Under the pieces are notes generated by a model. That model made no database searches. It was not told the DNA's origin and was given only the letters and a program-made list of their open reading frames with translations. A program made the position numbers and the translations under genes. A stretch of 63,384 nucleotides of DNA, the filler included, from Atractiella rhizophila (lineage: Eukaryota), in the NCBI GenBank assembly GCA_021432655.1. It is 5 parts of 4 records of this genome, joined end to end, with 100 filler letters (N's around TTAATTAATTAA, not from the genome) between each part and the next. Parts side by side here need not be neighbours in the genome. Positions count along the whole stretch, not along the records: positions 1 to 31,155 come from MU271700.1; 4 more parts are not named here. The stretch is one strand, 5' to 3'. Shown here piece after piece: positions 4,633-61,877 of the stretch (positions are counted from its first letter, which is position 1; each line of letters starts with the position of its first letter).

Positions 4633-4808
4633 CAAGCCTGAAACACGTGATCAACTTCAACCTTAATGTTCATTCATTGGCAAGTTTCGTAAGGACAAGA
4701 ATGGATTAAATGACTTTTGTTTTCGCTGCTCTTCACCGTTCCTACCAGGAAAGATTCAAGTTTAAAAGTAGAATGGCATTGAAAAGGGGAAAAAGCCCTC
4801 GTCTACGG

Positions 4809-5180: not shown

Positions 5181-5483
5181 AAAGAAGAAGGAAACGATGA
5201 TCCGTGGGCTGGTCACGGAGAATGGTATTAGACATTCGGGTGCTGGAGTGAAGGACAACCCCTGAGAGGTGACGATGAGCCTTAATCGCGGTGCGAGTGT
5301 TTAGTTCTCAGATGACTGATTCATTTTCAGAAATATTAATCAAGCATTCCCAATCCGCGCCGTCACAAAGTGTACCAACCCTGAGTAACTATTTACATTC
5401 CAAAAAGAAAACAAAATATTTACATTCCAACAGGATTGACATGAGAAAGACTTGGTATTAACAAATCACGAACACGGAAAGAC

Positions 5484-7869: not shown

Positions 7870-8278
7870 CGGGTAGCAAATTGTTTGGTGGTTGTTGTTC
7901 AACGCGTCGTCCCGTCCCGATCGTTTCAAGGGAAAGGGACAAACGTTAACGTTGATGGTTGTTGCCGTGGTTGAAACTTCCTATGGAAGTTCTCGACTTG
8001 AAATCGCAACAACTATTCTCTTCCAGTACCAGTGCCTTCGGTGCCTCACAAACTTGTTCCACTGGCAAACACGTTGGTTTTGCTCAGTTGCTGATGGTAT
8101 TTCTTGGACACACTCATTGGTTTGGCTTGGAGCCATCACGTAATAGAAAGCCAAGATAGGATATATCATAGACGGAAGGCACATTAACAAACGGCGTATG
8201 ATTACAGATATTGCACAATGGAATCACGAAATGCAACGACCAGTCATCCTCAGAATAAAGACTCCTCCTCCTGTCACC

Positions 8279-17100: not shown

Positions 17101-20100
17101 ATGCCTCCCAAACCTCCTCCTTTACCTCTCCCTTCCCAGCTCCCCACACTCCTCTCCGGCAGCGAAGACCTCCTCGAATTGGGACCGATTATTAAGAGGA
17201 TACATGTCACGAAACAGCATGATGCTTTCTTGAGGGGCTTGGAGAAGGAAGTGGTGGAGAGGGAGGGGGAGATTGAAGGAGTATGCAGGGAGAATTATCA
17301 AGTTAGTGCTCTCTTATCCTTAGAAGGGTTATGGACTTGTGGTGTGTGGGACGATTTGGCTCTTTTACTGTGAGCAGGGGACATTGGTGAAGGAGACAAG
17401 TACTCCTGTTGTAGATCGGGAGACCGATGAATTCAAGAAACAAATCATTCCTCTACTTGTTGCATTGTCGTTGTCCACTTCGAGAAGGAATGGCACAAAG
17501 TGTCACCAAACACACCCGCAGGACTGCTGAACCTGAGTAGCCATCGCAAATAGAAAGGTGGCGCAGATGAGTCGGCACTCTGGAGGTGCAGTCTTCTTTT
17601 CATGAATCCAGGAAGACTGCTCATGCCTAGGGATTCATGACACGATTTCATTAGCACATATTATTGGAAGGCAGAGAAATTTACTATGATGTAGAAAAGG
17701 CGTTGTCATTCTGCCAAAATAACATGAAACTCTGGGGTGAGGCGAGCAGAAGCTATGAATCTTGTGGCTGGAATATAATCTACATATGACTTCTGCGCTT
17801 TCAGCTCGAAAACTGGGCAATCAACCTGTTCCTGCACTCTAGTGCGCACACATGCTTCCCCCCCTTCTATATAGGCGGTGGCCGACCAGAATGGTGACGA
17901 TCTGTCAGGTCGAATATGCCGGAGCGTTTCCTGTTTGAAGACAGCATATTTTTTTTGGTCTAGAATCCAAGCGTTCTCACTGTCATCAATGCTACTTCCT
18001 TTGCACTTCTTTGAACTGCCAAACCGATCCTGTGAACACGGGCTCATTCCACGCGATTGACTCTTTGTAAGCTACTTGAATATAATTCGTTGTCCAATGC
18101 GGAAATCATATCCTGTACCTCCAATCAATCAACGTTGACATCTACGCTTCTTAGGAATTCATCTCCTCAGTTGAGAAACTCCTCAAAGTACGACAAGGAA
18201 CGGTTAATTTGAAAGTTAGAGCGATGTCTCTGAATGAAGATATTCAAAAATCTGGAGCAGTTCTTGCGGCCAAGGTTAGTGCGGTTTCATCCATACCTTG
18301 CGACCTTCCTAATATTCGCGGAAGCGAAAAGAGTTGTTAGATGCGAAGAAAGTCGCCCAGAACTTAGACGAAACGATAGAGACATTGCAAGCCTGCCTAC
18401 GCGTTCTGGACCTGAACAACAAGGTCACCAAGCTGATAGAAGATCGTCAGTATTTTGCAGCTCTAAAGGTAGTCACTTCGGTCGTCGATTCCTTAGCCTC
18501 CTGACAATCTGTCACAGGCTCTGGATTCACTTGCTCTCACCTCACAGATCCCCATACTTCCAGCTCACTTCTTAACCCAAATCCTCTCGACTCTTCCCGC
18601 CTCAAAGAACCTAATCAAGACAAGTGTGCTGAAGGAAATGAAGACATGGCTCTTCGACATCCGAGAGATAGAGGCGGAAGTTGGAAAGAAGAGCTTTGAG
18701 GGTATGGATCTACGGATCAGGAGGTGGAAGGTGCGCTTGGCGAAAGATATCGAGAAGGGAGGGGCTGGACAATCGGCTGGAAAAGGTCCAGGTGTGGGTA
18801 GCAGTCTCGAGTTGACGGTCAGCGAACGACATGAGTGTATGCTGTTTTGTTCGTCCATGAGCAATGTCAGGCGACTGAAAAATGGTGCAGATGATGTCAT
18901 CGATAACGCTCAGGTGAAAGTTGATTTCAAACCACTGTTGCAGTGCATTCACATCTACGACTCTATGGACTCAGTCGAAGAATTACAGCTCAATTATCAG
19001 AGCGATCGGAGGGCGAGTATCCTCGACCATCGCCGAGTTACATGCTCATTATGTGATCTTGCTAGGCTCAATCTGCCCTTATCCTTTCCCAATCAACAAC
19101 CTTCTCCCTCGCTTCACTTACACAACTCCTCTCTCAGATTATTGGTTTCTTCGTCATCGAGTCACATGTGATCCGAGAGACGAGTTATCCCATACCATTC
19201 CGCTCAGAGACGGAAGTGGAAGACTTGTGGGAAGGAATGCTGGAGAAGACCGTCGAGTTTGTCAAGCAGGGGCTGAATACGTGCGAAGATTTAGAAATCT
19301 ATCTCGGCGTAAAGAAGAAGGTTGAAGGATTTGTCATGATACTTGAGGTGATTCTCATTTATTTCTATTGCCAGACTCTTTGATGATATAATGTGGGAAG
19401 GGTCTGGGATACTCAGTGGCTCAACTCAACAGTCTTTTGTATACCTTGTTTGAGAGGTATGCTGCCCTCCTCCATCGGTACTTCCGATCCACCTTCCAGA
19501 AGGTTTGTTGCTCCTCTCGTGTCATCTAATTGTTCCATTGAGAGGACTTCTAGATTGTTGCATCGGACGATTATCAACCGCTCGAAGTGGAAGGAGCAGA
19601 AGATTTTGAGATTGTATTGAAAACGTGCTGGTTCCCCCGTGGTGGAGAATGGAGTATCGAAGATCTTCGAGAGTGAGTTGCACACATTGACTTGCTCCTC
19701 GTATATGACTGAACTATCTCCAGAATGGCAACCAGCAAGCAAAGATATCGCTTCCCGTTCTCAAAAACATACTACGACAGTTGTCAACAGATTCGACGCT
19801 TCGTGGACGAGTATTACCGTTTCGCAGAGGGAATTAATGTGCATGATCGGGACATCGACGAGGTGCTACGGAAGGTGATAATTCTTCAATCCATGGGAAG
19901 AGGTTGAGCTAACTAATTTTCAGGCTATCGACCTCTTGCTTATCGAACAAGTTTCGAATGAAATCAACAAGCGGGCTTCGCTCGCAGCTAACAAGCTCTC
20001 CGTCAGCCAGCTGGCTCAGATTATCATCAATGTTTTGTTCTTCGAAGTAGCTTGTGAAGAGCTCGAAGGAGTTTTAGTTACGCTGAAGTGCTGCTTCCTT

Positions 20101-21063
20101 CTACATCCTGTCACTTGTTCTTACCAATCGGCGGCTTACAGATCTACCCAACGAGGCAGTACGACGCTCCAATCTCTAACTTCGTTCAACATCACCCTCG
20201 ATCACGCCAAGCAGTTAATCCTTCAATCGATCTGTCAAAAACTCGACAACCTTGACTTCCCACAATACGATTGGGTGTCCTGGGTTGCACCATCCGAGGC
20301 AGAGGGAGAGGCAACGCCTTCGGAGGAGATGAATGGAATGATTGCTTACCTCAAAACAGTCATGGATTCCAACTTTGATATCCTTGGAGAACAAGGAGGC
20401 GTGAAGGAAGGAGTATGGAGGGGTGCAATTCAGCATGTTGCGGAAGGACTAATGGCACGCTTATCTTCTCATGTAAGCGGGCAGACGAGCTGATAAAAGT
20501 TGGGAATAGTCGTATCTCTCAGAAAGAGAACCGCTAAAGATGTCTCACTACGGCTTAGGATGGCTAGCAGTCGATGTCCGATATCTCGTTTCGCAAGCAA
20601 CAGAGCTAGGGTTTGAAGGCGAGAATACAGGTTTCGTGTTGGAAGAGCTTTCTCAGGTGAGAGTCTGCCCCTATTGTAAAGCCATCTAGCAGGTGTCTGA
20701 TATGATATTGAATGAATAGACAGTAGATGTCCTTCTCTCGCCAAACATGCTCGAGTTCCTTACTCCCGAATTCAAATCATCTTTCTGGCCAGCAGTTAAT
20801 CCCAAAGTTGTACAAAGTGTACTGATCAAGGTTCGTCCTTTCTCCTCCAGCTCCTGTGGCGAAATAGAATTTTAATCGGAGGATATTGTGACAGCTGATA
20901 ACGTGGCAAAATTCCGTGTCAGCGAGTGTATTAGAGGCTGGAGGAGGGGGCAAAGGAAGGAAGAAATTGACGGTATGTCTCCTCGCTCCTTCCTGTGTCC
21001 TGTCTCTAAAATATGGGCTATGTGAAGGAGGACCTATTGAAAGGTGTTGCTGTTCTACGATAG
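17101..21063 (+). CDS. SEC15: Exocyst complex component Sec15/EXOC6
   Basis: LGPIIKRIH...EIEGVCRENYQ|EFISSVEKLLKVRQGT, MKTWLFDIRE, VDFKPLLQCIHIY, FPFSKTY, QLAQIIINVLFFEVACEELE; many introns; 3' end approximate. Confidence 0.92.
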
Positions 21064-21398
21064 CCGAACGTAGCAGAAGGTATGTGCCTTAGAAATCCAT
21101 GTCGAATGTTGCTAACTCATTGGTCCTTGGGTTGCAGGATGGGAGGGCTGGTCCCACGAAAGAGCATCCAGTTCTTGTTCGGAGATCGCTGATTTCTCCC
21201 ATGGAAAAGATGGGACGCATTCATGCGCAACCTAACCATAGTGCAGTCCAGTGGTATTTTGTAATTTGTAAAAGTTCATTGGTTGTGTTTTGCTTCCTGA
21301 GCTGTCACGTGTGCACACGAAAAGCGCGTCAAATCTTGAAATCCAGCAGAGAAGCTGCCACTTCCCTAACCTCTGTCTTGAGCTCCCTCTTCATCGCC

Positions 21399-22579
21399 AT
21401 GTCTTCCCTCCAGTCACACCTCCTCCGGTCTCTTCGCGCGTCGCACCCGTCCCAACTCCCCCAGACATACTTTTATCCCTCACCACTTCGCACCCCCTAC
21501 CTCTCCCTCCAGCTTTTCAGGCAAGAATTGGCGGATATACCGGTTAAGGTCAAGAGTGGACATACTACTATGGGAAGGCTGAGGTACGAGTGGTGGAGAG
21601 GTGCAGTAGGCGAGGTTTGGGAGGTACGTTTTCGTTTGGAAAAGAAAGCGTCTTGTGGTTTGTGCTGTGCAGTGAAAGAGTGCCTGTTATGAAGGAGTGT
21701 CCTTTGATTGAGAGCCCTTGTCAGGCCGTTGGGAGAAACTATTCTGCTTTACCATGACGGGATGAGGAAGGAATTGTCCCTAAGGCAGTCCACCAGACGT
21801 CATGTTGTTGAGGCTCTTTTCATACGTGCTAGCCTTGAAACTGTTACTCTTAGGCAAGTAACATTCAGCAATGAGTAATATTGCATTTCATTTCTAGAAG
21901 GCACGCTGCTCTGCCCTCGTGGCACAAGATGGGATATGAACTGACAGGCATGGATCAAGGAAGGGACGAACGCCTAAGCATCCGGTAGCACTAGGACTTG
22001 CAGAAGCCCGTCGAATAGCGCCTGGATTAGACCGCACAAAGCTCATCGAAATGGTAGACGGCTTCGTATGTCCTTCCCTCTAACACGTGCACTCCACAAC
22101 TCTAATTGTGTCCAACTGTAACGAAGGAGGAGCACTTCCTCGCTGGACCAACTCACCAGTCTCTCTCCGCTTTTTCCCGCTTCTCAAACCGCACCATGCT
22201 TCCGCTACTGCATCTTCTCCACTCCCTCTTCTCCCCGTCACCTCATCCCTCACTGCAACATCTTCACCTCCCCATCTCCCTTTCACTACGCCCACCAATA
22301 TCGACGATTTCTTCCCCGACGCTCCTCTACGACTTAGCGTGGGAGGAGCTTACAAAAGCTCAGGACTTGTTGCAAAAAAGTCCCAAATTGAAAGAAGAAT
22401 GGGTAGTCTGGGCGTCAGCAGTACCGGCAGTGGAATACTGGAAGAGAGTGAAGCTAGAAAAGAAGGATGTGAAGGAGAGGAATTGGGCGTGGGAAGTAGG
22501 AAAGGCTTGGTCAAGGGAACGATGGGGAATCAGAGGAGGTGTTTTAGGTATAAAACTGATCCCATCTCAGAAGCAGTAA
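21399..22579 (+). CDS. NDUFAF6: Divergent NDUFAF6-like (squalene/phytoene synthase fold) complex I assembly factor
   Basis: Exons 21399-21623, 21964-22065, 22127-22579: FRQELADI...MGRLRYEWWRGAV|GRTPKHPVALGL...AVPAVEYWKRV. Confidence 0.6.
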
Positions 22580-23217
22580 CAGCGCTATTACATAGGAAAT
22601 CGCTGAATATATCACCCTGCTTTTTGACAGTCAACAGAAATATTATACCGTCAGTCAAATGAGGTCTTCAGACTCATTTTCTGCATTCGCGCCATGTTTT
22701 TGTTTCTTATCCTCCTCCTTCACGTGATTGAAAGCATCATGCTCATGCTCTTCTCGCTATCGTCGAGTTCAAGAGTCCAGTCAGATCCGCAATCACAAGT
22801 GCCTTCTCAAGCCGTCTACGGATTTTATCATTTTCGAGCTCATGCGCCTCATTGTCTCCGCCTAGGTCGGATGCTTCAGTCCTCAACTTAAGGTCGGCCT
22901 TCTTGAGCTCATCAGAATGATCGGAGCTTCTGAACAAGTCGGCACACCTCGTTCATCTTGGTGCTGGTCGTCTTGATCGATAAGTGCTCATGCAGGGTTC
23001 ATTGCAGGTTCATGGTTATCATGACAGTATTCCCATCCTTAGCTGGCTAATGCAAAATGATATTGTCATCGACCAAGCTGCTTCAGCACTTTGCTCCTTA
23101 TAATGTAGAATAAAAATGGGAACTTTAACACCACATAGTTCGCTGAGGATATTGACGCACTGCTAGAGGTCTGTGGGGGATTGGGAACAATTGTAACCTC
23201 ATTTGTTCAGTAAAGCT

Positions 23218-24972
23218 TCAGCTTCTGTTTTTTGGTCCCTTCTTTGGTTTTGGGAATTGAATGGGCGCCTGCAAGGTCGCCACTCTCCCTTCTGACAGTT
23301 TCTCGACCTTGCATCCAATCGACTTGAAAATTTCCTTCAACACACACTAGTCAGCGAGTAGGAACGGAAAGGAAAGAGCATAGCATACAACGAGGTCCTT
23401 CTCTGGCATCTGCAAGTCCGTGGCAAGCTGGGCCACCGGCGACCTGAATTCAGATATGTGGAGGGAGATGGCAGCAATGTAGGCAAGGAGCTTTTGTTTG
23501 GCGTGAGGAGTGCGTCTTCGTCTGTGTAGACCAGTCATCAATTTGTCGCAGGGTAAGAGGAGGCAAGTGGACTTACTCTGTTGTCCCAGTCGGAAGCTCG
23601 CTAAAGGTTTCCAAAAGGTCGGTCTTGATGGTTTCTGGTACTGAGCCTAGCATGGGAGGGAACGAGTAGTCTTCGGGTATCTTCGTGTGTGGAAATTTCT
23701 GGTTCACAAAGAACAAAATGGAGAGATAGAGTACGGCCCTTGTCCTCCTCTTGCTGTCATTTGTTTCCGTCGCCTTCCAGAGCTCGAAAGCCTTCTCAAA
23801 CTGATTCGAAAGGTATGTGGAGTGCTTGGCGTAAAGAAACCTCCTCGCTGCCTCCTTGCCGTCTCCTTCGAACAGTCCGATCGCCTCCATTCCCAGGTCC
23901 TTAGCATGAGGCATGAGCACGTCAAGGCGATAGATCTTCTCTTTCTGCTTTGTCTCCATATCTACCGGAGGGATAGGTTTTCCTGCCACTTCCACATCTT
24001 GTAGTTCCTCCATAGACAAGAGTGTCTTTGCTCCTTCCTGAATTTGCTTTCTCACGACCCCTCCCAATGTCTTGTCCCCTCCCAGTCCCTCTTTCTTTAA
24101 CACATTCCTCTCCCTCGCAGCCAAGGACCTCAACGACTTGCGGCTGCCAAACGCGGCTGTGAGATCGGCTCTTGCTTGGGCGTACGGAAGAGAAGCAGAT
24201 GCGCCAGGAATAGGCGGAGGAGGCAGCTCGGGGCGAATAGCGTGGAGAGGTGCAGGAGGAAGAATACTGAGAATCCGCTTTTTACGAGAGTAGGCGCAGA
24301 GAACATAAGCTCCATCGTCAGAACTGGCAGATGAAGAATTAAACCATAATCCCCCAGTCGAGGCGTGGAGTTCTGACGACTCTTTGGAAACGTTGTTGTA
24401 GAGTTCGAAAGAAAGTGAACGGGGAGGTAGTGTGCTGGGTATCGTAGCTAAAACGTGAATTGTTAATGAATAGAGCTGGGATATATTCTCTAGCAACATG
24501 GTCCCGCCGTGGAACATCGTAAACGCAGGTATACCGCCCAGCAGGTGCAAACTTTCAGCTGTATAAAGCAACGCCTCAGACCTCATGGATGAGGTAGATA
24601 ACGCGTGACAGAAAGCCAGAGGCAGTAAAACATTCCAAAGAGAAATATACAGATGAACCTCTCCGTATATGGGAAAGGTTGTGGCAAGCAAGTAGTCACC
24701 AGAAGCCCAGAGGCTGGACGTTTTCAGTCAGCATCACCAGAGCTCGCTCCTGAGGAGATCGAGATTACAACAGCGGTCAAAAGGATAAATTCCATCATTC
24801 ATTGATGCCAGTCAAAGAAGAAAACAGTCCCTCGATCCCATAGTACAGTCAAAGAGGCAAAACACGAAAGCTCACCTAATAAAGGACACAAACTATCCTT
24901 TTCTGGGAAGGACAGCAGCTCAGTACGCGCAGTTTCAGTTACCGCCGTGGAAGATCGTTTGCGTTTTGACAT
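23218..24972 (-). CDS. RPA49: RNA polymerase I subunit A49 (PAF53)
   Basis: ARADLTAAFGSRKSLRSLAARERN, IPPVD...IYRLDVLMP, KLLAYIAAISLHI, LATDLQM, FKSIGCK...VATLQAPIQFP; first intron 24875-24448. Confidence 0.85.
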
Positions 24973-25273
24973 CTGGTTATCCGTTAGCAAGAGATGAGAA
25001 GCCAATTATTTTCTTTCGAAGGAGCAGGAACCGGAAATTTTATTCAACATTCACATTCGGGAGATGCGGAACTTAAATGCAGGAAGCACGTGAGCACTGA
25101 CACCTATCAGAAAGAAGAGAGCAGTCTGTTCATTTGACAGAATGAATTATTTATGCCTATAAAATACATTATATCCATGTGTAAAGATGCAACTGCAGAG
25201 CAAATGAAATATGCGGCGAGACCGAACCAAGCGAGTAAAATGATGACGGAATGGAGTGGACTGACAGAAACGG

Positions 25274-28200
25274 TTATGAGAAAAAATATTCACTTTTGAG
25301 GACCTCTTTGAGATCAAAAGGACCTCTGTGCGGAAGAGGAGGGAAGAGAAGCTGGATATCCTTATCGTTGCTCTCCTCCGACAATAGCGCCTGTTTCCAT
25401 TCCTGTTGCGCCATCTTGGGTGCCTTCTTCTCAGGGGCAGAAGGGTCATCCGAGGCGGGTGTGAGTACCGGTCCAGGCTGCTTCTTCTGCTTCCCTTCTT
25501 CATCCTTCTTTTTCGGTGTCAAAAATTTGTGCTCCCCAGCCATTGAACGGATCTGCGAGAAAGAAATGAGTGCCCTGTTGAACGTGAGAGACAAGAGGAC
25601 ATACGTCGTCGCAAAAGTTCTCCAGAATCGGGAGTGAATGCAGCTCCACAAATGCTTCCCTCAAATGTTTAGCCATCTGTGGGATGTCAGCCGCATGTGT
25701 CCAGAATGAATCGTGGACCATCGCAAATGTCAAGCTCGACTCTTCCATTTTCAGAGCCGTCATCATCATATGGCTCGCGTCGAGAGAATGAATGAAATTC
25801 GGAGCGAGAGCAGCGCATTGTGGCGCGGGGTCAACTGGCATACTTTGGAAAGAATCGGCAAGGGCGACCTTCTGGATTACCGTCGAGTACTACAAATCGA
25901 ATGGGTGAGTGGATGTCGCAGCGCACCAGAACGAGATCGACAGAGACTTACAGACTCTTCCACGTCCTTCCTATAGGGCTGGATAACCCCGACCCCGATC
26001 GGGGAGTACCATTTCATCGAAGTCATGCCAATACCGTCCCTTGCCTTCTGTAAGTTGACACTTTTGGACTTGTTTTCTCTTTGGGTTAAAGCGTTCTGCT
26101 GCTGGGTGTGTAGATTTCTGGAGTTCACAACCAGATATGCAAGATGAAGCAGCCATTGTTGAATCCTTGAAGCTCCTTTGAACAAGTCACCTATGGACAG
26201 CAAGACCTTTCTACCCACAACTTGTTCCGCCCTCGTGGCCACCACTTTTTCACCCGTCAGTAGATAGGTCTCCATTCCGCTTTTACACCCGCCTTACCCT
26301 CTTCCGCTTCCTCCTTTACTTAGACCTTCTTCCTCGGTCACTCCTATGGGTCGAGCGACGACTCGTCCTCTTGTGGAAGCTACCGTAGGAGTGCTTTCTA
26401 CTGAACGTTCTAGGCTGGTCTGAGTATGACGCTGGCTTGCTAGACCTCTAATACTTCTTCACCTACCGCCTCTATCTCCCGTCCAACCTAAGTGTCCTTG
26501 GCTGCCTCTTCCTACTACGCAAGAGCTTCTTCATATTCCCCAACACCCACCGAGGACTCAAGCCGCTTGAACACGGTGAGCTCTAAGTGGTCGCTAAGAA
26601 CCAACGTAAGACCGCACTTCGGACATTGAAGTGCTGGTACCCAGTTGTATCCTACCGCATATTTTACCGACCCTCTCGAACCAGTACCACCGTCTACGAA
26701 TGACCAGGCAACTAGAAGTAAGAAAACTTGGTCGGTCCGACTATGCGCAATATCTTGTACCACGCTTACTGATGCGAAACGTCTAACTTTTTTACAGACG
26801 GCGATAGTACCATTTTCCGCAAAACGTCAAGCTTTTGATGACAGCTGTTGAGCTAGGGAGAATGTGGGGCTAGGAGCTGAAGAAGTCCGAGCTGAGCTCA
26901 GTTAAAAACTAGTACAAGAGCGGGAGAGGCGGCGACTCCGAGGAAAGCAGCTGCACCTGCATCCCCTCAGCGAGGAGCTCCAGTCGAACGAGCGGTTTCT
27001 CAAACTGGTGGAACCGTTGTAGCTCGGCCTCTGCCATCATCTTCGAAACAACAGGTCGCTCTCCAAAAGGTTCGGCCTTCTACAGCGGTTGAAGTGGTCC
27101 GAGAACCTCTCAACCTCTTTCCTTTTGCCACTACTTGAATTCGTCGCACTGCATTTCGCGAACCTATCCCTCCGAATACAGCTCACCCTCAACCTCCTTT
27201 TGTTCTTTCTTGCCGACGGTCGAGAATTTGTCTACTTGTTACTTCATGCCAAGGGCGAAAAAGGACCCTTTTCAAAACTATCCAGGTGTCAGACCACTAC
27301 GCCGTAGACAAGTCAGGTACGTTCGCAACGTCCTCTCAGAGCCAAGCGAGGAATACGGACTAGCATGCGACCTACGCATGCGCGCCGTTAACTCCGAGCT
27401 CTTCCTAAGGCTTGATCAACGTCTCTTCAAGCGCTTTCGTCTGCCCCTCTTCTACCGTTTGTGACGTCCGTCCGTCTGGCGGAGCAAGTTTCCGGCTTTG
27501 TAACTTTTCCGTTACTTCCAGACCTGTGTTCGCTAACGCCTGGTCAACTTTCTTCTGTAATTTAGCGATGCTGGAGCCGGTCTATAACGGCCTCTTCTAG
27601 GGTTAGAGGATAGGGTACTACGGTGACGACGGGCATAATAGAGGTTTAACGCAGGTGTTGTTTAACGGAAAGAGTGCCAGCATCTTCGAGAGGCTTACTG
27701 TCCTGGCCGACCTCTGCTACCACAGTTCAAACGAGAAGACTACCAGTTGTAGTCGCTCCGATAACTCGACCTCAAGTTCCGTTTCTAACAACCGCCTACC
27801 TTCCCCTTACGCCGACACCGCTCTAAGTAGTTAGCATTGTTCTAACTAGCGACCTTATTCGGGGATTCATTGCTCGTCCAAGTTCGGCTCATGTTACAGC
27901 TTTGTCGGGTTGGGTCAGCTATGCAACGGTTTAGGCGAGAGAGGGCAAACAACTTACGGTGACGCTGGCCTGCGACCTTAGGGTTCTGACCTGCAACCAG
28001 GGCCTTTCTCTTACCCGTTTTACGTAACAAGGTTCATAGGAGGCTTTGGTTCGTTCTAGACCTTTAGCAAACCTGGTGCCTCGACTTCACGTCATAACCA
28101 CGGTACTACTAGCCAATAGAGAACTTTATACGCTTCGTAGAACACTGCCGTCTTCACCTACCCCTCTGTTACATTCACAGAGAGTATTATAGTGACTCTC

Positions 28201-31155
28201 AAGCTACTGTTAACAAAAGGTCGCTCCTTCTTGTAGGTCGAAAGGTCGTCTCGAAGGGAATACAGCGTCCGTGCTTCCAGCCACAGTAGTTTGACGTGGC
28301 ACGGTAGCAGCTCGACAAGTGCTTCTTGAGCCAACGGAGGTGGGACGTCGTAGCTGTAGAAGGTTACGAAACGTGAGGTGCTGGGACCTGCTCGAAGCTG
28401 CTCCCGCGGATGGAGTGTTGATCGTGGGTCGGTCACGCGTGGTCATGAGTGCTTGTTTCCTTCAGACAGTTCCTCCTGTAGTTCCTACCTGCAAAGCTGG
28501 CTCGAAAAGCTCGAAATCTAATAGAGCCTTCACAAGGTACCCAGCAGTTATTCTTCCACGAACGGCAGTATTGCGTTCAAACCTTGTGACCTCTGGTCAA
28601 AAATAGGTAAGGGTGGCGGTTCGGTCTTCAGCTGTAGGGACTACGCGGCTTCTGACTATAAAATGGTCTTCCAGTCCTCGTCCTAAGCTTCCTTTAGCTC
28701 TACGTCCTTGTAGCGTAAACCCATTTCTTCGTCTTTTTTCAGTAAAGTCGCGCAGCACCACGAGTATCGCTCTCTACGTTATAGTCAATGTTCGACTGCT
28801 AGCGGGTACGGCATTCTGGCAGTATAGCTAACAGCGTACTGATTTGATTACTTTGAGGACCAAAGTCAAGGTCTTGCTTCAGTACATGAAAGGTGTGTTG
28901 TAGCTGAAGGCACCTGCTCGCATAGGCCATGGGGGGTTGGAGAGTGTGTAACCTCTACTAGAGAGCGCCTCGGAAGAATTTAAACGTCTTCCCTTTGGAG
29001 ACCCCTTCCTTCCCGACGCGACCGAGTTTCACGTGGAAAGGTTATGGATGCCTTTCTCATTCGACAGCAAACTGCTGGCTCTCGTTAAGCGTTACCTAGT
29101 GAACCTACTATAAAAGTTCAGTCGACTGCGTGGAGAACTCCAGACAAAGACAAAGTATGAGGCTGAACAGTGGAATCGAATAATTCAGTTGCTTATCGTG
29201 CTAACCACCGTCTTCCGTCTGCTGGGAACCGTTACGGAGCGTTGAACAAAGCTTGAATGACCGCGAGATGCCATGTTTTTAGGCTATCTGAAGCAGAGAG
29301 TGGAGGGACACGTGGTCCTACCGTGGACATTGCCAGAAGTCGTGATACGGCGAGAACCTCCTCTGCAGCGTCCCCGACGTGTACAGTTAGAGAGGTTGTT
29401 GGGTCGTCCTTTCGGGCGTCTGCATATAAGACCGCATCGGCTAGACCAGTTGGTCTTCTATCTGGTCGTGACATTTAGACCTGATGGGCTCCGAGAACAA
29501 AACTTTCCAGTGCAGTGATCCTTTCAATAGTTTGTTTGACACTTAAAACGAGGCGAAGGACGAACATGAGCCAAGACTGTCGAACTTTCCACTACTGATG
29601 GCAGATACCGCAATGGAAAAAACCTCGCTTTGTTGTCTAGCTCTTCGTCAATTTCCTATAAGGTCTTTAAGGCCGGCTCTTTCAGTCGCGTACGCGCGAG
29701 ATGGACTCAGCTGTTCACGCAAAAGCAAAATAAACGTCGCTAGTGTGACTGAAGNNNNNNNNNNNNNNNNNNNNNNNNNNNNNNNNNNNNNNNNNNNNNN
29801 NNNNNNNNNNNNNNNNNNNNNNNNNNNNNNNNNNNNNNNNNNNNNNNNNNNNNNNNNNNNNNNNNNNNNNNNNNNNNNNNNNNNNNNNNNNNNNNNNNNN
29901 NNNGCATTGATGACCGCACTTAGCTCACTGACAGTGACCGTCGGTAGTTGAGCCCTGAGATCGCTCGTCCAGATCGAATGCAGACTCATCCTCCCCTCTT
30001 CTTCCGCTCCTTTCAATCCGTAAAACTCTTCGACCGTCATTCCACCACCGGCACGGATATGAGAGTTGTATGACTCGAAGATCTTGTTCCATATCAAGAG
30101 GGCAGAGAACTTGTTGAAACGAAGGTTTTGATTCGGCCCACGGGAGGACAAGAGGAGGGAGACGTATTCCTCTCTATTCAAGATCTCGGCAATGGCCTCT
30201 CCCCTCATCGTCTGAGTATTCGAGAAACCTTCCTTCACCGCCTTCAACGCCGAGTCCTTCTGCGCCAATAGCACCTGCAACACCCTCGGTTTGGCGGCCC
30301 GCAACATCCCCTGAGTCGCGCTCGTGCTCTCCTCACTCCCCTCCGTCGTCCTCCACCACTCCGCCCACTGCCTTTCCACTTCGGCACTCTCCATCTCCAC
30401 GAATCCCTTGCCCCTCCGCGCACCATTTCTCAAACGCTTCATCGTCTTCTCCACATCCGCTTGATACGCTTCAGCCGCTTCCAGATCGATGCCCCTCTCC
30501 TCCGCAATCTCATCCACGACCTCCTGACAACCTGACTCGCCCCTAGATTCTTTATAGAAGTTCCTATAAAACCTCGCGCTCTGATTGCTCACATCGTCCG
30601 TCTTCTCCAACGTCTTTGCTCCCCACCACAACCGATGTATGGCGTTATAAGTCTGCAGAGCGGTCTTGAGCGATTCTACATTTTGCGAATTCTCTCCTTC
30701 CGTGGTCCAGTTGACGGTCCGAGAATAGAACGGTGGGTTTTTGGTGAAATCCACTCCTTCCCTCAATGGTGGCGCGGCATGGGAAAGGTCCAGGTCTTCC
30801 TTCTCGATCTCGAGGCTGTGAAGGCCTTCAAGGTCCGGTACAGTCTCTCGCTGTTTAGGGGGGAAAATGTCACCTTCGAGGGAAGCGACGATGGTAGCCA
30901 TAGCGGAGTGGTGCCAGCCAAGGGGATGATAGCGGTGTTGAAAGAGCAAGGCAGCCTCGTGATACGGGAGCGGTTTCGTCGTGGGCGAGATGGGGTTATA
31001 CCCCGTGGGCAACTTGAACGGCGGAGGGACGTATTTCGCCTTCGGACGCTCCGTCGCCAGACTCATATCCACCTCCACCTCCGAATCCACAGCCCTCGAC
31101 TCGAACGGCGCCTCTTCTTCCGCCGCGAGGTTCGCTTCCGTCTCAGTTTGCTCCA
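25274..31155 (-). CDS. RPO41: Mitochondrial T7-like single-subunit RNA polymerase; central part stored reversed (about 26213-29754), 5' end lost at a linker
   Basis: Normal minus strand gives SIGDLFKGASRIQQWL, APNFIHSLDASHMMMTA, VHDSFWTH, SEYFFS*; complement of the reversed block gives PMLCTPRPW, YFPHNIDFRGRAYP, HQDGTCNGLQHYAALGGD, TRKVIKQT. Assigning 29904-31155 to this gene is inferred. Confidence 0.92.
26213..29754. other. Reversed-not-complemented block 1 (assembly artifact)
   Basis: Complement read left to right encodes RNAP motifs with GT-AG introns; ends at an N gap; left junction uncertain by a few nt. Confidence 0.95.
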
Positions 31156-31255
31156 NNNNNNNNNNNNNNNNNNNNNNNNNNNNNNNNNNNNNNNNNNNNT
31201 TAATTAATTAANNNNNNNNNNNNNNNNNNNNNNNNNNNNNNNNNNNNNNNNNNNN
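31156..31255. other. Artificial contig linker N44-TTAATTAATTAA-N44
   Basis: Same 100-nt structure at 50004-50103, 56344-56443 and 61778-61877. Confidence 0.97.
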
Positions 31256-31386: not shown

Positions 31387-34300
31387 TCATACCGGAGAAA
31401 AGGAGATTTCTTCCACTCCACTTGTCGGTCCGGCGTCATCGTCAAACGGATTTCGATTGTCGTCAATCTCCACTCGCAGAGGTTCTGGAACATGCCCCGA
31501 TTCCAGGGGAGCATCTACCATCCTGGCATAGGGATTGTTGGAGCTTAATGGACGTTGGACGGGGGGTCGTGGCTCATCGGGACTGAGGACTAGCTGCCTA
31601 TTTGTGCCTTCCCCGTCATCTACCATTATCTTCGTCATATTCTTCCGCTGCTCCTGCTCCATTGCCGCCTCCCTATCTGGAGTGTCGAGCGAGTGAATGG
31701 CTAATGGTACTTGCTTTACCTCCCCATCAGCTTCCACCATCTTCCACTTGTACTTGCGATCTTCCATGTCATTCTCCTTCCGCGCACCTTCGTATTGAGG
31801 ATATTGCTTCTCGGGAATTTGGAAGTGTCCGTCTAGAACTGCTGTTGGTGGGATACTTCCCGCTAATCTGCCCGCTAGATCGGCAGAAGGGAGGCGGGTC
31901 GGGGAAGGAGGCTCCATTTCCAACTCTTCGTTCTCCGCAGCAGATTCAGGAACAGCTTCTGTCGATATTCTGGTGCCGACTGGGGGGTAGAGAGCGCCTC
32001 GAATATTGAAAAAGATAGACGATCCGGGGTAAAGCTGATACAGATTAACGGGGTACCGAACATGAACATTTGCAACTTGCATGTATCGCACATCAGGCAC
32101 TTTGATGATCGGTCCGGTGAAGGGGTACAGCGAAGGTCGCACAGGCGGATACGTCAGGTAGAGATTGAGAGGATACCGTTCGAAAAACTGCTTTTGTTTC
32201 ATGTCGAAAGGTAAGTTGATTACTACTCCACTGGGGTAAAGCTTGAAGTTGGGGTATCCAGCAGGATAAAGGTTGTAGAGATTCCTTGGGTAAGGAAGTT
32301 TCTCCTTGACAGGTTTTGCCGGGGGAACGGGTACAACAAGTGGTCCCCGAACGTTGAAGAGCGTTGGGAATGGAGCGGGATAGATAGAATACAAATTAAG
32401 AGGGTAACGAACATCGGCCGCATGGACTTTGGTGTAGGAGATGTCGGGTATTTGGACTAATGGGCCGCGAATGAGGAACAATCGAGGAAAATGGGGTTCA
32501 TAAATTTGGTACAAGTTGAGTGGGTACCGTTTTGGAGGTGCGGGCGGTCCCTTTGGTTGGCAATAGAGGGGCCCTCGAACGAAGTAGAGTTTTGGAGAAG
32601 ATCCCACGTATAGCTGATACAGATCCAACGGATACCTTGTCCCAGAATTGATGACATTCATGTACCGTACATCCGGCACCTTAATGATTGGTCCAGTGAA
32701 CCGATACTCAAGTTCACGCTCGGGCCAGTGCCTTTACTTCCTCAACTTTCCTTCTCCTAAAATAGTACGGCTTCCTTAACTTCCCGTCACTCGAGGGAGG
32801 AGAGCAGCAAAGACGTTTGCCAGGCCGCTTGCCTGTTTACGTGCATTTACCCAGCAGCAGCAGGCGAGAGGGAGGAGGCAGCTCCTTGCTTGGTCGTTTC
32901 CTTGAACGATGAGGAGGCCAGGGATAAGGACGAGGACGCGGCTGCGGACGAGGACAAGGTTGTTGGCCGGAGTGTTAAGGTTGTCTTCATAAACAAGTTC
33001 GAGGTTGTGGACAGCAGCTCGGCTTTGGCAGCGAGGGTCGTCAACGGGGCTGTCGAGGGGGTGGTGCCTTCTCTCTGTTGTTCTGTGGGAGAGAGGACTG
33101 AGTGTCTGCGTTCGAAGAGGAGTTTGGGAAGTCGCTAGCCCGAGAGAGAGTGCGAGCCCGAGGGAAAGAGCGAGACCGAGGGAGAGGGCGAGCGTGGTTC
33201 CGGCAAGGTCGTAGAGCATGTTTAGGTGTGGTAGCTTGCAGCGTCAAGTTGGGGGTCGAGTGTGTGAAGGACAGTGGGGAGAACGAGTCTGAGTTAGGGT
33301 CGGCGTCCACCCACTCTCAGTGGGCTAATGCAGCCACTAGCTATAGAGTTTTCACGTAGGGCGAAGGAAACACCCGTCAGTACGGGTGCTGGTGGTAAGG
33401 CTTCGTAGCTGGTCGTGTCGGCGGCTCCCACCTGTAGTCACCGACCACCAATAATATGGCGGCTACGTAAACGGCGTGCTAGGTGGACGGGTACCTCAAG
33501 TGTCAGACCCTATACCGGGGCGCCGCTTCAAACCTCCTCCTCATAACGAGTCCGACCTCTCCTGACAGGCACAAGGAGGGAGAAATACACCTCCTCTTTC
33601 GATTGCGCTTGTTAAAATGCAATATCTACTTGGTTGTCGATTGCTCATAGCGAGCGCGAAAGAGGGAAGGTAGTTAGTACCCACAGCGCGAGATGGAATC
33701 GGAAGGTGGGGTTACGGTTACATAGGTTACTACCCTTACCCGCCGCCCTACCCGCCCTACCTACCGTACTTGTACCTCAAGCCTAACTTTGGAGCCGACT
33801 CACTCCTCTAAACCAGGCGTCAAACCCGACCGGAGACCCTGCCTCTTCGTCTCCCTTGTTCAGGATGGTTCCGAGGACCACGGCGTTGACGCTACCCTCC
33901 TTACCCGTACGTGTACTACTTGTACGTCCGCTACGTTCCCTACCCTCCTTACCCTTACTACCCTTACCCTACCCCGCCTACCGCCTAAGCATTCAAGAAA
34001 AGAAATCAAGTTTTCCGTACTCAACTGTTATAAGACACATGTTGTCGCTAGCATCGTGCGGAGCTTAAACTGTATCTGTGAGCCTTTCGAGCGACCATGC
34101 TCGTCACCGAGCGGTTGCGTCCAGGAGTAGTCAGTTAAGGGGTAGTGGGAGTTGTTCGAATGGGAGTCGTGGGAGTTATGGCTCGGAGAGCTAGGTGAAG
34201 AAGGTAGATAGCGAGCAGGTACCTGTACTCTCCTCGCTTGCACGTACCACAGTACCCACTACCGCTCTACGACTTGTTGGTGCTAAGGGGAAGGTTCGCT

Positions 34301-35839
34301 GTGCTACCCGAGCACGGATAGCCGCGACCTCCTCCTCACTCCTTCTACATAGAATGTCCCCTTCTGCCGAGCGGCCTAGATTTTCCTCGCCTTCGGTCTT
34401 CTTCGAGAGCGAGGAACGTCGCCCGTCCCGGCGAATAGAATGTGCCAGCCTGTCACCTACCCCCTCTGCTCCAGTAAGTTTTTTAGGAAGGGAAGTCCTC
34501 CAATGTCTCGGGCTGAGGCCTAAACAACTATGGCGACCATGGTGGTGACGCTACCTACCTTACTGTTACGCGCTGCACCTACCCTTCTTCTAAGGTTAAA
34601 GGTTTCCACACCTGGCCGGGGCAGCGTCCAGGATTACCACTTCTCGACCAGCTACTTGAGGAGCTGAGGACCGGAGGGTGAGGACTAAGGGGCCTGGCAG
34701 AAGGTAGAGGTCTAGAACGCCTTTCTAACTACCCTCGAGAGAGATGGGGGCGGAACGACTTATACTTACCCTGCAAGCCTTCCGACGTGTACCTGTACCA
34801 CCCACTTCCTTCCTCCTCTCTTGGACTTGAGCTCTGGGGGTAGCTCTGATCCTCCTTTATGAATCGAACCCTCGCGTCCGGTTACGTAGAACAACCCCAA
34901 CTGGCCCTTTGTCTCTCGTCCTACTCCGTCAACTTCCTATAGTCACTTGGCTGCGGCTGAGGTTTCCTCTTTCTTCTCAAGGTTCTCCAAGTCTTCTCTG
35001 TCGACTACTTTAACCCTTACCACCTCCTCCCTCTCCTTGTTAACCATGTCCCTCTTGTAGTCGTACTGTCCTCCTGCTCGCGACGGCTTATAGGATCCTT
35101 AGAGATACTCGAGATGAACCGAGTCATAGGGTCAAAGTTGGAGATAGGCTTTCCGTAGCAGTAATTAGATGGGAAGCTGTACTTTGTCTTCGTCAAGAAG
35201 GTTGCTATAGGGGAGTTGGAGATGGACTGGATGGGTGGTCATGCTCGTAGAAACATAGGCAAATGCCCTGGGTAGTAGTTCCGTGGTCTACACGCTATGT
35301 ACTTTCACTAGTTGAGTCTCTGAGCGATAGGAGAACTAGAGATAGTCGAAATAGAACCCCCACGAGGTTTCGAGATGATACAAGCTCCTGGTGAAATGGC
35401 GGTTGGAGTTCCTGGCGGCGGAGGGGGTTTTGCCATGGGCGAATTGGACATGGTTTAGATATGCGGAGTCAAGGGAGCTGAAAAGGAGTAAGCGCCAGGG
35501 GAACAATTTTAGGGGCTGCAACGGATGTACTTCCACGTACGAAGACTGTAGGCTATGGGAGATTTGGAGATAAGGTAGATAGGACGAGGAAAGGGGTGGG
35601 AGAAGTTGCAAGCACCTGGAGCATAACATGGGCAAGGCGGACGTGGTGGTCACTTCCTAGCGGAAGGAATAGGGTCCTTAAACCTGTTGGACATGGGAAG
35701 TCCGATGGGATTAAAGTTCGAGATGGGCTTTGGAGCGCTCTAGCTGAACGGAAAACTGTAGTTTGTCTTCGTTAAGAAACTTGCTATGGGAGAGTTAGAG
35801 ATAAACTGCATGGGTGGTCAAGCTGGCAGCGACATAGGG
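31387..35839 (-). CDS. Large uncharacterised protein with conserved-looking N-terminal blocks and C-terminal Tyr/Pro-rich repeats; 32701-35839 stored reversed; further upstream exons possibly at 36286-36620
   Basis: Complement of 32701-35839 gives WLVVIIPPMHLPHDPP...QQLTSIARAFSLPS, PRLSEEIWSAVW, IVARLEFDIDTRKARWYEQWL and repeats ending RPSLYP, which joins FTGPIIKVPD at 32700 on the minus strand. Confidence 0.85.
32701..35839. other. Reversed-not-complemented block 2 (assembly artifact)
   Basis: Seamless in-frame join CTG TAT CCC | TTC ACT GGA after re-reversal; ends at an N gap. Confidence 0.97.
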
Positions 35840-36799
35840 NNNNNNNNNNNNNNNNNNNNNNNNNNNNNNNNNNNNNNNNNNNNNNNNNNNNNNNNNNNNN
35901 NNNNNNNNNNNNNNNNNNNNNNNNNNNNNNNNNNNNNNNNNNNNNNNNNNNNNNNNNNNNNNNNNNNNNNNNNNNNNNNNNNNNNNNNNNNNNNNNNNNN
36001 NNNNNNNNNNNNNNNNNNNNNNNNNNNNNNNNNNNNNNNNNNNNNNNNNNNNNNNNNNNNNNNNNNNNNNNNNNNNNNNNNNNNNNNNNNNNNNNNNNNN
36101 NNNNNNNNNNNNNNNNNNNNNNNNNNNNNNNNNNNNNNNNNNNNNNNNNNNNNNNNNNNNNNNNNNNNNNNNNNNNNNNNNNNNNNNNNNNNNNNNNNNN
36201 NNNNNNNNNNNNNNNNNNNNNNNNNNNNNNNNNNNNNNNNNNNNNNNNNNNNNNNNNNNNNNNNNNNNNNNNNNNNNNNNNNNNNGACGACTCGTGGAGC
36301 CTCCAGCTTGACCTTGCACGTTCAAAAGAGGGGCGTACGGTATAAAATAAAGTAATGCCTCGGTGGCACTGCACTGCAATGCTGAGCTTTTGTCCCCGTA
36401 GTTAACTACCACACAGCACACTTGAGGGCGTCGTGGAAAACTCCTCGGTCGCCTGTTTCACCTTATCTCAGCCTTCAGGGCCGCTTCAATGTCGTCCGAG
36501 AGGAGCTGTTGGCTATTTTGCTGCTGGAGGTGGTCGAGGTATCTATGTTGATGGTCACTAAAGTTAATCGAACAACACGGCTCTCAATTCTTGGCAAAAA
36601 TTGCTTCATGCGCATGTTCGCTCCGATAGGCGACAGCAGGGGAATAGATGGTGGACGCAACAGCGTTCAGAATGAGAGATAGATGGATACTGTCCAAAAG
36701 AAACTACGTATGGAGTCTACAGGAGAAGGAACAGGGTGGAAATACAGGAATTTGAGAAACGAATTCTCTGTGATGAAGTTGCTCGATAGAACGCGACAT

Positions 36800-50003: not shown

Positions 50004-50103
50004 NNNNNNNNNNNNNNNNNNNNNNNNNNNNNNNNNNNNNNNNNNNNTTAATTAATTAANNNNNNNNNNNNNNNNNNNNNNNNNNNNNNNNNNNNNNNNN
50101 NNN

Positions 50104-59246: not shown

Positions 59247-61777
59247 TAAGGCTAGGAGTAGTTGGTGGTCAATAATGAGCACCAACACTCCTAGGCAGAA
59301 CTAAACTACATAGGGATGACTCATATGAGTCATCTGAGGCAGATGACCAAAACAACACACTACAACTAACACTCCCACCTGGGCAGCTGTCTCTTGACAC
59401 TTCCACCACATCCAGAAAATCTCCCACCAAATTCGTACAATGTATACTCGATATAAAGCAGAAAGCATATTAGTTTTTCAGTGAAAAGAAGAGGGAAAGT
59501 CCTCGCACCGCTTAAAGCGGCGTCTTATAACCCCACAGAGGAGGAAAGGAATTTTTATCGTGCCCCACAACTGCCTCAGACACTTGGGTAGGGGTGCAAA
59601 CCCATCATAACTCGAAACTTGTCCACACTGGCGACTGGAAGTGCCTTGGTGAGGAGGTCCGCTGGCATATTGATCCCCAGACAGAAGACTGGACTGATCT
59701 TGCCCATCTCAACAACATCCCTGAGCCAATAAAAGCGAAGGTCCAGGTGTTTCATTCGACCATGGTGCTCAGGGTTCTTGGATACCTGGAGAGCGCTGCT
59801 TCTGTCTGTGAAGAGGGGAGTAGGACCTTGAGGAGCGAAGCCAATTTCTTCTAAAAGATTCCTTAGCCAGACAACTTCTTGGCCAGCTGAGACTCCTGAG
59901 ACATATTCTGCTTCGGTTGTGGAAAGGGCAACGAGGGATTGTAGTTTGCTGCTCCAACTGACCGCTCCATTGCCTATCTTGAGGAGATAGCCTCCCATAG
60001 AACGTCCAGTATCCTTGCACCCAGCAAAATCTGCATCGCAGAAAGTGTGAAAAGGTTGCTTGAGGTCAAAACCAGTTGCAGAATACTCAATTCCTAAGGT
60101 CTGAGTGCCTTTGAGGTACCGTAGAAGATGCTTGGCCGCTTCCCAGTGCTTCTTTCCAGGATTAGAGAGGTATTTTCCAAGTACAGAGACTGCGTGAGCG
60201 ATATCTGGACGAGTGGAGATGGCCAAGTACATCATGGAGCCAACAACGTTGCTGTAAGGGATTGTGCGCATTTCTTCCTGTTCTTCCTTTGTCTGGGGGC
60301 AGTCCTGCTTGCTGAGACCGTGTCCAACGTTGAGAGGAGTGAGGACAGGGTTGCAGTCATCCATCTGTTGGCGTTCTAGAAGGTCCTTAACATACTGTTC
60401 TTGATCCAACCACATAATTCTTCGCTTCCTATCCCTCCTAATACGAACCCCAAGTAGGAATTCCGTTGGTCCAAGGTCTCTGAGTTTGAATCGCTTCCCT
60501 AACTCCCTCTTGAAGTCCTCTACAGCACCCTTGGATGTGCTAGCGATTGTAATATCATCCACAAAGACCGGGACAAGTACTTTGATGTCCCCCTTCGAGT
60601 AAATCCACAGACTAGAGTCGCTCTTGATCTTCTTAAATCCCATATCGACAAGTTCCTTATCGAGTTTCTTCTGCCATTGACGCCCTCCTTGCCTTGTGCC
60701 ATAGATGGCCTTGATTAGCTTGAGAACGTACTCTGGAGGACCCTGTGGATGACCTTCTGGTTGTTGTGCATAGACCTCTGCATCCATATCGCCGTTAAGG
60801 AATGCCGTAGAGATATCCACTGACTCCAAGTCCATGTCCAAGACACAAGCGAGCGAAAGAATTGTCCTAAGTGTCGCCCATTTGACCGTAGATGCGAAAG
60901 TGTCAAAGTAGTCGAATCCAGGGCATTGAGAGAACCCCTTGATGACCAATCTGGCCTTGAAGCGCTCAATAGAACCATCTGACTTCTTCTTAACCGCAAA
61001 CACCCATCGAGAACCAACGATTTTTGCTCCTTTAGGCGGCTTGACCAGAATCCAACTCTTGTTGTCCAAGTGAGATTGAATCTCCTTCACTGTCGCTTCA
61101 TGCCATTCCTTCGCATTAGGGCTTGCCATCGCTCTTGAATATGACTGAGGGACCTCTACTCCTGTTGCTGCACTCATGGCATGCTCTGTGACAAGCATAT
61201 AGCCATATTCCATCGCCTCTGGCTCAGGAGCAGTCTTGTTGGGTCTGTCTCTCTAGGTGAACCTGTCCGCAAGTGTACGGATGTAAGAGTTTTAGCCAAG
61301 GTCTGGGTGATGTCTAGGTGGGTTGTTGTGGTCTAGCTGGAGGAGGTCGTCGAAGTTGTGGAGGGGGACAGTGGTCCGGAAGTTCTTAAATAAGATGCTC
61401 TTCTCTCGCTTGAGAGGTCTAGTCGATGTCGCACAACAGGACCAGTTGACGGACGATCCTGTGGGTGTTGAGTATAGTCAGTAGTGGTACGTCATCTCTA
61501 GGAACGTGTCCTCACAACCACGAGTAATAACTGGTGGTTGGTGAGGGTCCATACAGAGGTCTATGGTGAGGTTACACGAATAATAGGCGGGTTGTTGCGG
61601 TCTAGTTGGAGGAGGTCGTCGAAGTTGTGGAGGGGGACAGTTGTCCGGATAGTTCTTAAATAAGATGCTCATCTCCTGCTGGACATGTGTCTAAATCCTG
61701 GGGTCTTCGCGGAGTTTTGTTGCTGCTTCCCAGTTGTCTGCTCGAACCCTACAACCATTTCCTTACACTGCATGAGT
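59247..61777 (-). mobile_element. Ty1/Copia retrotransposon 3' half: open RT-RNase H ORF (59576-61213), PPT and 3' LTR (59247-59371)
   Basis: RFKARLVIKGFSQ, DISTAFLNG, VFVDD, FCDADFAG, ALSTTEAEY, KHLDLRFYWLRD, ADLLTKAL; PPT AGGTGGGAG before TGTTAG at 59371. Confidence 0.95.
61228..61777. other. Reversed-not-complemented block 3 (assembly artifact)
   Basis: 61671-61777 is the base-by-base complement, in the same direction, of 56928-57032. Confidence 0.97.
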
Positions 61778-61877
61778 NNNNNNNNNNNNNNNNNNNNNNN
61801 NNNNNNNNNNNNNNNNNNNNNTTAATTAATTAANNNNNNNNNNNNNNNNNNNNNNNNNNNNNNNNNNNNNNNNNNNN

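Follow-up and report, generated by a model that had tools for sequence, protein, structure and literature searches.

Mirror-written sequence in an Atractiella rhizophila assembly hides most of a mitochondrial RNA polymerase gene

The window analysed here, by which we mean the whole stretch of 63384 bases, contains a gene for a mitochondrial RNA polymerase whose 3' portion is written normally, on the minus strand at 25274..26213; this portion is delimited from open reading frames, the Pfam family PF00940, spliced contigs and the homologue P0020. Its exons lie at about 25952-26206, 25605-25889 and 25277-25552, with a stop codon at 25274-25276, and this part of the gene encodes the motif HDSFWTH and a C-terminus ending in ...SEYFFS. 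PF00940 matches 25503-25889 with 128.7 bits (cut-off 22), residues 1145-1169 of P0020 match 25351-25277, and the introns 25553-25604 and 25890-25951 are skipped by contigs of the public run X3, the former also by those of run X7. Immediately to the right lies a stretch of 3541 nt (26214..29754, assigned to neither strand), hereafter block 1, which contains those exons of the same gene that encode the N-terminal domain and the greater part of the polymerase domain, and whose true order runs from 29754 down to 26214, directly after 26213. Block 1 is delimited by motifs, loose contig ends, the mapping of the protein P0001 and a 4-mer log-likelihood score (LLR), and is followed directly by 149 counted N (29755..29903, no strand), a true assembly gap for which contigs of runs X1, X2 and X3 carry 177 more letters before 29904 that are absent from the window.

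As written, block 1 makes no sense as coding sequence, which is what the initial annotation of this DNA had claimed. No family match is found anywhere in 26214-29754 in written order, the longest stop-free stretch in the six ordinary frames over 26213-29754 is 123 aa, and none of the four ordinary-frame ORFs tested (123, 103, 103 and 94 aa) matches a Pfam family. Reading the complement of the same bases from left to right instead yields stop-free stretches of 312, 211, 183, 175 and 169 aa, and all four of the peptides named earlier recur in it: PMLCTPRPW at 28362, YFPHNIDFRGRAYP at 28886, HQDGTCNGLQHY at 29312 and TRKVIKQT at 29516. This complement-only reading gives most of a T7-like mitochondrial RNA polymerase interrupted by GT..AG introns, much as had been described; six inter-exon gaps in or at the edge of the block measure 34-84 nt between ungapped matches, and GT..AG ends are readable in five of the six, the printed ends of the 84-nt gap being without them.

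The mapping of P0001, a public protein of 860 aa from a nearly identical fungus and with the source name DNA/RNA polymerase [Atractiella rhizophila], leads to the same reading. Against the window as written only its residues 643-860 can be placed, such that the gene appears broken, as predicted. Reversing the block without complementing it, a check that had been proposed and that we carried out, places residues 1-860 colinearly on the minus strand, with residues 1-647 found within the block only after this re-reversal. Five ungapped exon matches on the re-reversed block (165/166, 196/196, 91/91, 115/115 and 43/43 residues, i.e. 99-100% identity) lie 47-57 nt apart. More distant homologues behave likewise, with all five of those tested gaining matches in block 1 once it is re-reversed: P0031, P0066, P0003 and P0020 become colinear from residue ~370-590 onward, and P0004 gains residues 624-1034 in separate pieces. 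The initial ~400 residues, which comparison with longer fungal homologues leads one to expect, have no placement and probably lie at the far end of block 1 and in the N gap.

P0001 scores 513.9 bits with PF00940 (Pfam cut-off 22), and its residues 10-306, which map only in the re-reversed block, score 181.9 bits with PF14700 (cut-off 30.1). The peptides HQDGTCNGLQHY, TRKVIKQT and HDSFWTH fit the catalytic motifs A (…DG(S/T)CNG(I/L)QHY), B (…RK..K….MT..YG) and C (HDSF), and VMTTVYGVT is present in P0001. The best solved relative of this protein is 6ymv_A, 'DNA-directed RNA polymerase, mitochondrial' (E 2e-168); the top 11 distinct sequences among its structure matches are all named mitochondrial DNA-directed RNA polymerase and are followed by T7-type phage polymerases, with T7 RNA polymerase itself matching at E about 1e-62. 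With PF00940, PF14700 (scored on P0001), motifs A, B and C and these closest structures all in place, the hidden gene is a member of the mitochondrial single-subunit RNA polymerases (yeast Rpo41 / human POLRMT type, T7-like), as had been proposed, and its protein is an ordinary one.

Sequence from outside the window was drawn from four public runs (X1, X2, X3 and X7), compared as Logan contigs of which 30 letters of each loose end are visible; these runs need not be the source reads of this assembly, and X1, X2 and X3 are about 99.5% identical to the window in the flank. All four runs have a depth of zero in nine bins across 26324-29671, a lack of cover that is not counted as evidence here. 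Of the words sampled from 20213-29754, where the normal flank accounts for a share of 0.63, fractions of 0.52 and 0.51 occur in the best runs, values that were likewise not used as evidence.

At the border itself these runs speak for an unmirrored order. Contigs of X1 and X2 cover 22998-26213, with 11 and 15 letters respectively that differ from the window, and the 30-letter loose ends that continue past 26213 are the exact reverse of 29725-29754 (30/30). As they read through 26213 before entering the reversed end of the block, the start of block 1, previously given as 26213, is corrected to 26214. Contigs of X3 skip 12 short stretches, ten of which have GT..AG or CT..AC ends, like spliced transcripts, and one X3 contig leaves the written sequence at 26206, its next 30 letters matching the reverse of 29687-29716 (29/30), which indicates a transcript in which splicing joins an exon of the re-reversed block to the normally written exon. 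The short-intron link into VLLSIGDLF that had been read from the sequence is thereby borne out; on the minus strand this exon begins at 26206. External sequence in unmirrored order across a border is thus available for block 1 (X1, X2, X3), while the evidence on two further blocks, described below, is internal to the window.

Composition sets block 1 apart as well. A TA/AT dinucleotide flip, suggested by the initial annotation as a screen and applied here within the 63384-base window, is clearly seen, the ratio being 1.78 in block 1 and 0.69 outside. The 4-mer forward-versus-reversed LLR of the block is -104 or -106 bits, against a null of 173 normal 3.3-kb windows of the same sequence with a mean of +107, a standard deviation of 22 and a minimum of +47.5. 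The null distributions of this score rule out chance as the source of the reversed signal.

Block 1 is not unique, since two more backwards blocks occur in the window. Block 2 (32701..35839, 3139 nt, no strand), recognised from TA/AT, LLR, an open frame and a reverse-only blastn match, holds, reversed without complementing, the 5' portion and the middle of a gene whose product is a proline/tyrosine-rich tandem-repeat protein. The 3' part of this gene is normally written on the minus strand at 31390..32700, as judged from its open reading frame and the continuity of that frame after re-reversal, and 446 counted N (35840..36285, no strand) lie directly to the right of the block. Within block 2 the TA/AT ratio is 2.2-2.9 and the LLR is -108 or -110 bits (against +107, sd 22, for normal 3.3-kb windows). 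When it is re-reversed, the open frame over 32700 on the minus strand grows from 448 to 862 aa and the repeat unit carries on exactly, and a reverse-only blastn match links 35254-35839 to 32122-32707 (75.9% over 589 nt, E 8e-116). Word-indexed protein searches returned no relatives of this gene at E <= 1e-10, and a full HMMER search gave nine weak matches, the best with E 8e-9.

Block 3 (61228..61777, 550 nt, no strand) forms the right end of a scaffold and was recognised from an inverted repeat, a complement-only match and its LLR. An ordinary inverted repeat between 57033-57108 and 61227-61152 (100% over 76 nt) breaks off at 61227/61228, and re-reversing the block restores it (98 matches in the first 100 letters); 61671-61777 has a complement-only match to 56926-57032 (98.1% over 107 nt). 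The block has an LLR of -18.7 bits, where 501 normal windows of 550 nt give +18.7 (sd 8.0). Directly to its right, at 61778..61877 (no strand), the sequence shows a scaffold-joining linker consisting of 44 N, TTAATTAATTAA and 44 N, and the same linker is found at 31156, 50004 and 56344. The fault is not universal: the window has seven contig right ends, and four of them (31155, 50003, 56343 and 57108) lack a backwards stretch. Two further candidates were rejected: 56444-57108, to the left of the third internal gap, has an LLR of +9.1 and ordinary repeat matches, and 58800-59400 has no reverse-only match to normal sequence despite a negative LLR. The latter coincides with a hairpin-like inverted repeat and is left as unexplained composition.

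Together blocks 1-3 amount to 7230 of the 63384 bases (~11% of the window), and the flipped TA/AT and 4-mer scores set all three cleanly apart from the rest. Each makes sense only in a complement-only or reverse-only reading, has flipped k-mer statistics, lies at the right end of a contig and is bordered by assembly features: all three have an N run or a linker on the right, the left border is seamless and unmarked in the sequence, and re-reversal restores continuity with the left flank in every case. For block 1, we conclude with very little doubt that the 3541 bases after 26213 were reversed without complementing during data processing, and that the real gene is intact, contains introns and lies on the minus strand. 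Such a reversed-only result would consist of the same letters as a minus-strand read complemented without being reversed. The most likely step, inferred from the N run or linker on the right, the seamless join on the left and the regained left-flank continuity of all three blocks, would be a one-sided contig-end extension or partial gap fill in which added sequence was appended backwards. Of the software error in gap filling proposed earlier, the reverse-without-complement error is supported by X1, X2, X3 and P0001, whereas strict gap filling is less favoured than one-sided contig-end extension because one block ends at a scaffold end and not at an internal gap. Under such an error a six-frame reading would find nothing in the block, and the polymerase gene would be split with only its last ~220 codons recognisable.

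The same letters would arise if a scaffolder had mis-oriented whole contigs, complementing minus-strand contigs without reversing them on placement and extending no ends, and the N runs or linker to the right of the blocks would suit this. We nevertheless regard it as unlikely, given that it predicts gaps or overlaps on both sides, whereas all three blocks join the left flank without N, and the re-reversed joins are base-exact (X1 reads through 26213, frame and repeat continue at 32700, and the inverted repeat at 61227). It is improbable, too, that the assembler output was correct and the reversal came later, e.g. in file conversion, in building a pseudomolecule with TTAATTAATTAA linkers or in preparing the window. 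At least one post-assembly step did handle contig ends, since the window concatenates scaffolds with artificial linkers, and block 3 ends exactly at one of these; yet what follows blocks 1 and 2 is in each case not a linker but an internal N gap, irregular in length (149 and 446), and their left borders lie inside continuous sequence that concatenation has no reason to touch. That the DNA of the isolate truly reads as written, through a real 'mirror' rearrangement, is vanishingly improbable: this reading has no positive support, and no replication, repair or recombination process is known that reverses a strand without complementing it. It would moreover require three events in 63 kb, all ending at assembly gaps or linkers, one of which would destroy the mitochondrial RNA polymerase gene, whereas in contigs of three runs, whose identity in the flank is about 99.5%, the order is normal.

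Whether the backwards appending of contig-end extensions was a systematic pipeline fault, such that about one tenth of the assembly would be mirror-written, as are 7230 of 63384 bases here, and other public assemblies from the same tool may be affected, is a tentative proposition to which we give slightly less than even weight. If true, six-frame and alignment checks would all miss the fault, which would show up in a simple k-mer reversal score. The blocks resemble the mis-oriented contigs and false inversions of draft assemblies in being orientation errors bounded by contig ends and gaps, with genes broken at the border. They differ from such (reverse-complemented) cases in that order is reversed and bases are left uncomplemented, so that they match no strand of the real genome, no biological inversion can mimic them and six-frame searches do not see them. 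Sequence databases occasionally contain reversed-only entries. A literature search at the level of listings for reversed, uncomplemented sequence in assemblies returned unrelated papers only and no description.

Consequently, ~11% of the bases of the window match neither strand of the real genome, and two genes or more are interrupted. In automated annotation an essential gene would come out truncated, together with spurious small ORFs, and comparative, population and machine-learning uses of the record would ingest nonsense sequence. The TA/AT ratio and the 4-mer forward-versus-reversed score offer a possible cheap screen for whole assemblies. For the organism, block 1 is not a real biological feature and matters for data quality only: in the fungus itself the gene for the mitochondrial RNA polymerase is almost certainly normal.

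Block 1 (26214-29754) is written in the window in reversed order without complementing, as emerges from contigs of the public sequencing runs X1, X2 and X3. Together with those of a fourth run, X7, we placed these contigs (Logan contigs rather than raw reads, from runs that may differ from the reads behind the assembly) on positions 20000-31155. X1 and X2 each provide one contig on 22998-26213 (4903 letters with 11 unlike the window, and 3778 letters with 15 unlike the window, respectively), and past 26213 both continue with a loose end, GAAGTCAGTGTGATCGCTGCAAATAAAACG (30 letters shown), that is the exact reverse of window positions 29725-29754 (30/30 letters). Because these contigs read through base 26213, block 1 starts at 26214; the start of 26213 given in the initial annotation shifts by one base, and across this junction the contigs carry the un-mirrored order, not the order as written. 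Contigs of X1, X2 and X3 also carry 177 letters before 29904 that are absent from the window, so the 149-N run right of block 1 is a real gap. X3 contigs skip 12 short stretches, and look like spliced transcripts since 10 of these have GT..AG or CT..AC ends; two skipped stretches, 25553-25604 (also skipped by X7, a run recorded as RNA) and 25890-25951, lie within the gene that block 1 cuts. One X3 contig ends at 26206 and proceeds with 30 letters that are the reverse of 29687-29716 (29/30), reading ...SACALYLSRQ then VLLSIGDLF on the sense strand. This transcript was therefore spliced from an exon in re-reversed block 1 (letters put back in the opposite order) into a normal exon, bearing out the suggested link into VLLSIGDLF via a short intron.

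The gene concerned encodes a mitochondrial single-subunit RNA polymerase of ordinary type. Normally written exons of this gene occupy the minus strand to the left of block 1 (...NFIHSLDASHMMMTALK...HDSFWTH..., C-terminal ...SEYFFS), and exon 25503-25889 matches PF00940 with 128.7 bits (cut-off 22). Via the C-terminal exon we found the public protein P0001 (860 aa; source name DNA/RNA polymerase [Atractiella rhizophila]; 98% identity over the query), which contains PF14700 (181.9 bits) and PF00940 (513.9 bits), and whose closest relatives among solved structures are chains that bear the name mitochondrial DNA-directed RNA polymerase (6ymv_A, E 2e-168), with T7 RNA polymerase next (E about 1e-62), in agreement with the T7-like mitochondrial identity claimed earlier. 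In local tblastn only P0001 residues 643-860 match the window as written, whereas re-reversing block 1 extends the colinear minus-strand match to residues 1-860. Exon matches are ungapped (165/166, 196/196, 91/91, 115/115 and 43/43, with 47-57 nt between), and a further stretch (38/46) lies at an exon edge of uncertain position; the GT-AG introns previously proposed are legible as GT..AG ends in 5 of the 6 gaps inside or at the edge of block 1, but not in the remaining one. Re-reversal also adds block 1 matches for each of the five more distant homologues tested: P0031, P0066, P0003 and P0020 become colinear from residue ~370-590 on, and P0004 now matches with residues 624-1034 as well, though piecewise. 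Comparison with longer fungal homologues predicts ~400 initial residues that were not placed here and are probably encoded by the far end of block 1 and the gap.

The P0001 model seems to retain the last intron (25553-25604, skipped by X3 and X7 contigs), so that its end is ...DTEKEG and not the conserved C-terminus ...SEYFFS, which the window encodes from 25277 (minus strand), where P0020 residues 1145-1169 match. To the right of the gap lies a 416-aa open frame (29906-31153, minus strand), located upstream of the polymerase gene, that is covered by X1-X3 contigs and contains no Pfam family; it may be a separate gene or may extend into the gap.

We translated 26213-29754 in four ways, including the complement read left to right. 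The six ordinary frames yield stop-free stretches of at most 123 aa, and none of the four ordinary-frame ORFs tested contains a Pfam family, consistent with the reported absence of a sensible product. Read left to right, the complement gives stop-free stretches of 312, 211, 183, 175 and 169 aa, and all four polymerase motifs described from this reading are present: PMLCTPRPW (28362), YFPHNIDFRGRAYP (28886), HQDGTCNGLQHY (29312) and TRKVIKQT (29516). The TA/AT dinucleotide flip, proposed as a scan, is likewise evident (1.78 in block 1 vs 0.69 elsewhere in the window). Under a 4-mer Markov model trained on the remaining window sequence, both strands included, and used to compare every stretch with its reversed form, block 1 has a log score of -104 bits, compared to a mean of +107 (sd 22, minimum +47.5) in 173 normal 3.3-kb windows.

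The TA/AT scan uncovered a second flipped stretch, block 2 (32701-35839), which ends at an N run (35840-36285) and whose border at 32700/32701 is set by the open frame that it cuts. This minus-strand frame over 32700 lengthens from 448 aa as written to 862 aa when block 2 is re-reversed, and its repeat unit is then exactly continuous (...VRPSLYP then FTGPIIKVPDVRYMNV...). When the reversed window is compared with the window (blastn), 35254-35839 aligns with 32122-32707 in the reverse-only direction (75.9% over 589 nt, E 8e-116), as expected of a 579-nt tandem repeat with its upstream copies written backwards. By this evidence from within the window, block 2 is a backwards stretch. The restored frame (31390-32700, minus strand, plus block 2) encodes at least 862 aa of a Pro/Tyr-rich protein with a tandem unit of ~193 aa (YPLNLY..., FTGPIIK.PDVRYM...), in which no Pfam family was found; two protein searches returned no relative at E <= 1e-10, and HMMER, run in full against 1.84 billion representatives, yielded just 9 weak matches (best E 8e-9).

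Block 3 (61228-61777) is likewise written backwards, again by evidence from within the window. An ordinary inverted repeat (57033-57108 vs 61227-61152, 100%, blastn) ends abruptly at 61227, and its continuation at 61671-61777 matches in the complement only (98.1%, 107 nt); once the block is re-reversed, the repeat continues in 98 of its first 100 letters. The Markov score is -18.7 bits, vs +18.7 (sd 8.0, minimum -10.2) in 501 normal 550-nt windows. At its right end stands a scaffold-joining linker (44 N, TTAATTAATTAA, 44 N), present in four identical copies (31156-31255, 50004-50103, 56344-56443 and 61778-61877); the window is therefore a set of separate scaffolds joined, not one continuous chromosome piece. 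The adjoining region (56444-61227) is rich in repeats, with inverted repeats (57732-58037 vs 60979-60675, 95%), short hairpin-like elements (58947-59066 vs 59371-59252, 90%; more copies at 58036-58200) and strong CpG depletion at 58001-59000 (CG/GC 0.27), and is possibly made up of transposon remains. Elsewhere, a near-identical direct repeat (1-1484 vs 6403-7885, 98.45%) with weaker copies between (69-77%) suggests a tandem gene or repeat array over 1-7885.

Orientation errors are commonplace in draft assemblies; their reverse-without-complement form is unusual, and a full-text literature search found no description of it. All three blocks form the right end of a contig, have a left border without N, abut an N run or linker on the right, and join the left flank exactly to the base on re-reversal. 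Because they share these four features, they fit a processing step in which contig ends are lengthened into gaps or past scaffold ends and the added piece would be written backwards, e.g. if a minus-strand read were complemented but not reversed. Backwards blocks occur at 3 of the 7 contig right ends in the window and are absent from the other 4, and no long one is found at any of the 7 left ends (short blocks being below the reach of the score). Mis-orientation of whole contigs by the scaffolder, or a reversal introduced during later concatenation, fits these borders less well than contig-end extension. Of the software error in gap filling originally put forward, the reversed order of block 1 is upheld by the run contigs; the extension of contig ends is our own inference. 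Together, the three blocks account for 7230 of the window's 63384 bases. Their reversal is not a biological feature.
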